From the IMG/VR virus record IMGVR_UViG_2861084961_000002: a DNA stretch of 47,167 nt. One strand, written 5' to 3'. This stretch comes from a virus. Taxonomy: Duplodnaviria > Heunggongvirae > Uroviricota > Caudoviricetes. Each line of letters begins with the position of its first letter. Within the stretch, counting starts at the first letter, position 1. Shown here one piece after another: positions 22,172 through 22,716 of this stretch. A program made the translations under genes and the position numbers. The notes under the pieces are model-generated. The model was not told where the DNA came from. It did no database searches and was given only the letters and a program-made list of their open reading frames with translations.

Positions 22172-22690
22172 ATGGAAGTCAACAAAAAGCAGCTGGCTGA
22201 CATTTTCGGTGCGAGTATCCGTACCATTCAGAACTGGCAGGAACAGGGAATGCCCGTTCTGCGAGGCGGTGGCAAGGGTAATGAGGTGCTTTATGACTCT
22301 GCCGCCGTCATAAAATGGTATGCCGAAAGGGATGCTGAAATTGAGAACGAAAAGCTGCGCCGGGAAGTTGAAGAACTGCGGCAGGCCAGCGAGACAGATC
22401 TCCAGCCAGGGACTATTGAGTACGAACGCCATCGACTTACGCGTGCGCAGGCCGACGCACAGGAGCTGAAAAATGCCAGAGACTCCGCTGAAGTGGTGGA
22501 AACCGCATTCTGTACTTTCGTGCTGTCGCGGATCGCAGGTGAAATTGCCAGTATTCTCGACGGGATCCCCTGTCGGTGCAGCGGCGTTTTCCGGAACTGG
22601 AAAACCGACATGTTGATTTCCTGAAACGGGATATCATCAAAGCCATGAACAAAGCAGCCGCGCTGGATGAACTGATACCGGGGTTGCTGA

Positions 22691-22716
<26 letters not shown>
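22172..22716 (+). pseudogene. nu1: Terminase small subunit Nu1, frameshifted by a 1-nt deletion in a C-run at 22566-22570
   Basis: Track ORF ends at 22624 after DGIPCRCSGVFRNWKTDMLIS; the lambda C-terminus ...[43 protein letters not shown] is intact in the +1 frame to 22716. Confidence 0.85.

Follow-up and report, generated by a model that had tools for sequence, protein, structure and literature searches.

A one-base loss in the Nu1 gene of a lambda-like prophage, real in the sequence and most probably no feature of the organism

The prophage and its packaging region

The stretch of DNA analysed here, referred to as the window, is 47,167 nucleotides long and contains a lambda-like prophage located at the classical lambda attB site. 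The landmarks of the element are the following, in window positions:

1-1284: ybhC
1331-1345: attL core
1419-2489: int
7781-9027, minus strand: ISEc52 (IS3 family) in a DUF2528 early-region gene; a derived marker with an identical left junction in E5 and in three Logan contigs
21983-21994, plus strand: cosN 12-nt cohesive-end sequence GGGCGGCGACCT, present as the exact string; lambda 1-2997 aligns to 21983-24977
22172-22624, plus strand: Nu1, the gene for the small terminase subunit, in the frame that the sequence gives; 150 aa, with residues 1-133 authentic and 134-150 aberrant; TGA at 22622-22624
22567-22570, plus strand: C4 run, an apparent 1-nt deletion; C5 in lambda, in five clean relatives and in the draft L034
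22571-22716, plus strand: 48 codons of the authentic Nu1 C-terminus, gpA-binding region included, displaced to the +1 frame
22691-24616, plus strand: large terminase gene A, 641 aa, GTG start, intact; overlaps the authentic 3' end of Nu1 (E5 annotation)

The position of cosN places Nu1 in its canonical lambda location. Between 22691 and 45665 the head and tail genes from A to tfa follow, each occupying one reading frame save for tail gene Z. Two cargo genes were observed in addition, namely a serum-survival lipoprotein gene of the iss/bor family between Rz and cos (20935-21228, minus strand) and a gene for an OmpC-type porin between Q and the lysis cassette (18063-19160, minus strand). An IS1 copy occupies the right edge of the window, at about 46470-47167. 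The 1.25-kb insert in the early region was also considered as IS911, and this assignment was rejected since the identical junction in E5 is annotated as ISEc52.

The attL core is the only attachment core within the window. In relatives, the prophage runs about 2 kb past the window edge, as far as an attR core beside ybhB (L035 3987-4001), and the DNA in between comprises IS remnants and an AraC-family regulator. The window thus does not hold the whole prophage. For the same reason, a grounded prophage devoid of attR was rejected.

The Nu1 reading frame

Homologues of the lambda small terminase subunit (gpNu1, TerS) in E. coli prophages are called nohA or nohD by PGAP in the genomes considered here. 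The gene in the window resembles its lambda counterpart in position, with cosN 178 nt upstream and an overlap with gene A. The protein as written matches the Pfam profile PF07471 (Phage_Nu1) with E=2.5e-83 and 278 bits (cutoff 30), including the N-terminal DNA-binding region, so both profile and gene position assign it to the lambda-type small terminases. This match is confined to profile positions 1-136 of 164. Positions 137-164 are missing, and the gpA (TerL)-binding region is not encoded in the frame as written. With one C restored, the full profile 1-164 is covered (E=3.9e-101).

The sequence at 22559-22576 reads GACGGGATCCCCTGTCGG. An initial sequence-only reading had claimed that one C is missing in comparison with lambda, and alignment bears this out: the run at 22567-22570 comprises 4 nt versus 5 nt in lambda NC_001416, in nohA of ATCC 8739 and in phage PhiR42_1. 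The lambda string given in that reading agrees with NC_001416. It had also stated that the Nu1 frame ends at 22624 while the authentic C-terminus is kept in the +1 frame to 22716. The translations of the open reading frames agree, with ..QRRFPELENRH...EYIEQSG undamaged up to 22716. Its residue counts have to be corrected, however: in place of 25 aberrant residues and a replacement of the C-terminal 30, the frame breaks after Pro133 and 17 aberrant residues (CRCSGVFRNWKTDMLIS) stand in for 48 wild-type ones.

Apart from the one missing C, the window gene is the ATCC 8739 allele, and adding the C back yields a 181-aa Nu1 equal to the common allele WP_000453587.1, which E5, ATCC 8739 and numerous further genomes encode. 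Within residues 1-133, the only differences from lambda Nu1 are A75T and L132I. The latter results from a C→A difference near the run, which is a common natural allele and separate from the lesion. In comparison with lambda Nu1, the window as written therefore lacks the last 48 residues in frame, with C4 replacing C5.

Taken at face value, the gap would be a recent replication slippage in the resident prophage that cut Nu1 after residue 133 with loss of the gpA-binding region, and the sequence as given encodes exactly such a truncation. Homopolymer runs are natural hot spots of indels (PMC8510543). In lambda, TerS binds TerL (gpA) through its C-terminal region (PMC9611059, which cites Frackman 1985 and Yang 1999), and neither terminase subunit is dispensable in vivo (PMC7229814). 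A genuine frameshift past residue 133 would consequently eliminate both the assembly of terminase and packaging: there would be no terminase protomer, cos would remain uncut and the DNA unpackaged, and the lesion in gene Z would add a tail defect. Such a prophage would be freshly inactivated for particle formation and would retain immunity, lysis and its cargo genes (iss, porin). The earlier statement that the Nu1 C-terminus contacts the large terminase, and that a real deletion blocks packaging, stands as a conditional on these sources (PMC9611059, PMC7229814). Its premise fares less well, since the evidence given below favours an assembly error.

Five private homopolymer deletions

The prophage of E5 is a true sister of the one in the window, because the exact ISEc52 left junction of the window, a derived character, is also present in E5. 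Over 39.3 kb, the window differs from E5 by one substitution, which lies inside IS1, and by five single-base gaps. No insertions were found. All five gaps are deletions in the window and every one is situated in a homopolymer:

3089-3094, plus strand: A6 run, A7 in relatives; intergenic
21345-21351, plus strand: G7 run, with G8 in relatives; in the intergenic stretch from iss to ylcI
22567-22570, plus strand: C4 run, C5 in relatives; in Nu1
30183-30187, plus strand: G5 run, G6 in relatives (four clean relatives covering the site and L034); in tail gene Z (29954-30531)
41675-41679, plus strand: G5 run, with G6 in relatives; in the Shine-Dalgarno region of stf, which encodes the side tail fibre (ATG at 41683)

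The G6→G5 change shifts the frame of tail gene Z and leaves an 81-aa N-terminal fragment. The event is of the same kind as the lesion in Nu1.

The polarity of the changes was read from five clean relatives, which are the complete genomes of E5, 2009C-3133, 13P477T, GPEC60-33-648 and AHB3, and from the draft L034. The five clean relatives and L034 have the longer run at each site covered. Inheritance of the Nu1 lesion is not borne out, since E5, with the common ISEc52 junction, has C5, and L034, which carries the portal allele of the window, encodes an intact 181-aa Nu1 as well as an intact Z. In a search with this portal allele, L034 stood for 24 similar places. As a control, the five clean relatives were compared with each other in ten pairwise alignments (~275 kb aligned), which gave 129 mismatches and 0 indels. 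Natural divergence in this lineage thus takes the form of substitutions and of large events involving IS elements or islands.

These data weigh against a real deletion in Nu1. Such an origin needs five indels alongside no more than one substitution on the very short branch since the split from E5, and 1-nt indels never separate the relatives, which differ only through substitutions and large events. Even in mismatch-repair-defective E. coli, 30,061 substitutions were recorded versus 5,324 small indels (PMC8510543). Under this mutator spectrum, the probability of at least five indels among six changes is about 4e-4, a value that leaves uncounted that all five changes are deletions. Three of the five sites are intergenic, so selection for inactivation offers no explanation.

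The distribution over runs points in the same direction. Shortened runs make up 3 of the 6 G/C runs of at least 6 nt, 1 of the 39 G/C5 runs and 1 of the 14 A/T runs of at least 7 nt. Half of the longest G/C runs are therefore affected, and if the deletions were real, hit rates of this order over the whole genome could not be reconciled with viability. All in all, we regard a genuine slippage mutation as unlikely.

An independent view on part of the element comes from a Logan contig of SRR23232111, which is 100.000% identical to window positions 9001-19266 including the IS junction and spans none of the five runs. Judged by this identity, the sample appears to be a clone-mate of the window. One G/C6 and seven G/C5 runs in 9001-19266 match this contig perfectly, which counts against a technical origin of the gaps insofar as under-calling was not uniform.

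Decay and islands in related prophages

Decay of the lineage in relatives (E5, GPEC60-33-648, 13P477T and AHB3) would be in keeping with a real inactivation of the window prophage. The decay in the sister prophages is real and independent, and in these other hosts it proceeds via substitutions and large events, not via 1-nt indels.

In E5, an IS-mediated deletion beside ISEc52 removed the equivalent of window positions 9032-16868 with immunity and replication genes (E5 L008 15837-17150); this deletion is later than the ISEc52 insertion. The portal gene of GPEC60-33-648 contains an internal stop (L021 21013-22614). An island of about 11 kb interrupts the major capsid gene E of 13P477T (L020 8777-19857) and the portal gene B of AHB3 (L022 24399-35211). 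Its genes include an integrase, a helix-turn-helix regulator, a primase, an SSB as well as its own major capsid and decoration proteins, and the AHB3 copy also has a small terminase. The island looks like a capsid-forming satellite that uses structural genes of helper phages as attachment sites. It is missing from the window.

Rarity and recurrence of the 4-C allele

A query of 80 nt centred on the C-run was used to determine the frequency of the allele. The exact 4-C version (100% match) accounts for 3 of the ~5,878 loci matched across 5,426 complete E. coli genomes. The three carriers are 2013C-3264, O145 RM12275-C1 and A22, and in each of them PGAP annotates a "frameshifted" DNA-packaging pseudogene. 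They share the identical 4-C allele and truncated frame with the window and are 97.9-98.9% identical to it. Their prophage backgrounds differ, which indicates independent events. In A22, several further frameshifted genes are located close by.

No carrier of the 4-C allele was found among the GTDB species representatives or among the 78 matching phage records, and IMG/VR has it on one contig, a rearranged 5.7-kb fragment. At the protein level, the exact 150-aa product is encoded on 18 contigs versus at least 1000 for the intact 181-aa allele. One such protein was deposited from O145:H28 (BBK57437.1). The presence of the allele in three RefSeq complete genomes speaks for a real deletion and, together with BBK57437.1, against a mere under-call, as some of these cases are possibly genuine.

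Ten carriers of the truncated Nu1 were inspected. All are GenBank assemblies; the contig with the gene measures 3.0-5.5 Mb in nine cases and 114 kb in the tenth, and gpA is fragmented in 6 and the portal gene in 8 of the ten. Where carriers could be aligned to E5, 7 of 8 showed 13-25 one-nt homopolymer deletions versus 0-5 insertions. A real allele inherited in common by the 4-C carriers was rejected, because their backgrounds differ by 1-3% or more; this mutual divergence means that the 4-C state arises repeatedly and independently. The G5 state of gene Z with its 81-aa fragment was found on 12 public contigs, two of which keep Nu1 intact. Other G runs on these contigs are shrunk further, from G8 to 6 or, in the tape-measure gene, from G7 to 6 or 5.

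Recurrence on several unrelated backgrounds would also be explained if C4 were real and the run acted as a contingency locus, that is, a recurrent and reversible slippage switch toggling packaging in resident lambdoid prophages. We consider this extremely improbable. Two forms of a functional C-run may be envisaged, and neither has more than a very slight chance of being correct. C4/C5 phase variation would turn packaging off and on. Alternatively, a -1 ribosomal slip on AUC CCC U would restore the wild type, with the P-site tRNA-Pro re-pairing with CCC one base back. Read from the sequence, a slip of this kind on CCC would yield precisely the wild-type ...GIPLSVQ, and a hairpin is predicted immediately downstream. 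The site offers no X XXY YYZ slippery heptamer, though, and the hairpin has zero spacer and a z of -1.44, with 15 of 200 shuffled sequences folding equally well. Programmed -1 frameshifting at Nu1 was therefore rejected: the heptamer is missing, the downstream fold is not significant and homologues are in frame. Indeed, C5 in frame is the rule, in at least 1000 contigs, in each of the 78 phage records that match, lambda among them, and in about 5,875 of 5,878 genome copies. As to phase variation, a run of 4-5 nt is short for an efficient process, and error-rich assemblies account for the recurrence.

Homopolymer under-calling as the probable cause

The pattern of the differences, their polarity and their recurrence in error-rich assemblies are observed, and from these we infer a technical cause: the missing C is most likely a residual homopolymer under-call in the assembly, and a biological origin is unlikely. 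Five private homopolymer deletions, set against zero insertions and a single substitution at most in the comparison with the sister, favour assembly error. Errors in long-read assemblies are mainly homopolymer indels, mostly false deletions (PMC12007338). The window resembles these cases in its private 1-nt deletions, with G/C runs of at least 6 nt being most affected, and in that the same sites are recurrently miscalled in other assemblies. It shows what is expected of an under-call, namely a private 1-nt homopolymer loss, several further losses of this kind with a bias to deletion, and recurrence in unrelated error-rich assemblies.

Some points count against under-calling. C and G runs are also hot spots of natural slippage, and the density of the deletions, 5 in about 46 kb or about 1 per 8-9 kb, is far below that of error-rich assemblies. 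This low density is the difference from long-read under-calling cases, and it is what is expected after partial polishing.

According to the preferred reading of an under-call, the error would have been left in the source assembly, which was probably a long-read or an incompletely polished one. Short-read polishing may do worse in the Nu1-A region, as different lambdoid prophages share this region and it can occur at up to 6 places in one genome. The real prophage would then probably have C5 and a normal 181-aa Nu1 identical to WP_000453587.1. The same process would have shortened the four other runs, one of them in tail gene Z. Correction of all five would give a near-intact lambda-like prophage at lambda attB, still with two IS elements, one (ISEc52) in an early-region gene that is not essential and the other (IS1) in the b-region.

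Significance

The Nu1 deletion is thus real in the sequence, but it is most probably no feature of the organism. If the deletion were real, the window would represent an iss-carrying lambda-like prophage that is unable to package its DNA, which bears on its mobility and on its annotation. If it is an artefact, the Nu1 and Z "pseudogenes" are not evidence of prophage decay, and calls of completeness or inducibility made from the window sequence would be wrong. The five runs can furthermore serve as sentinel sites for the polishing quality of assemblies with this common prophage.
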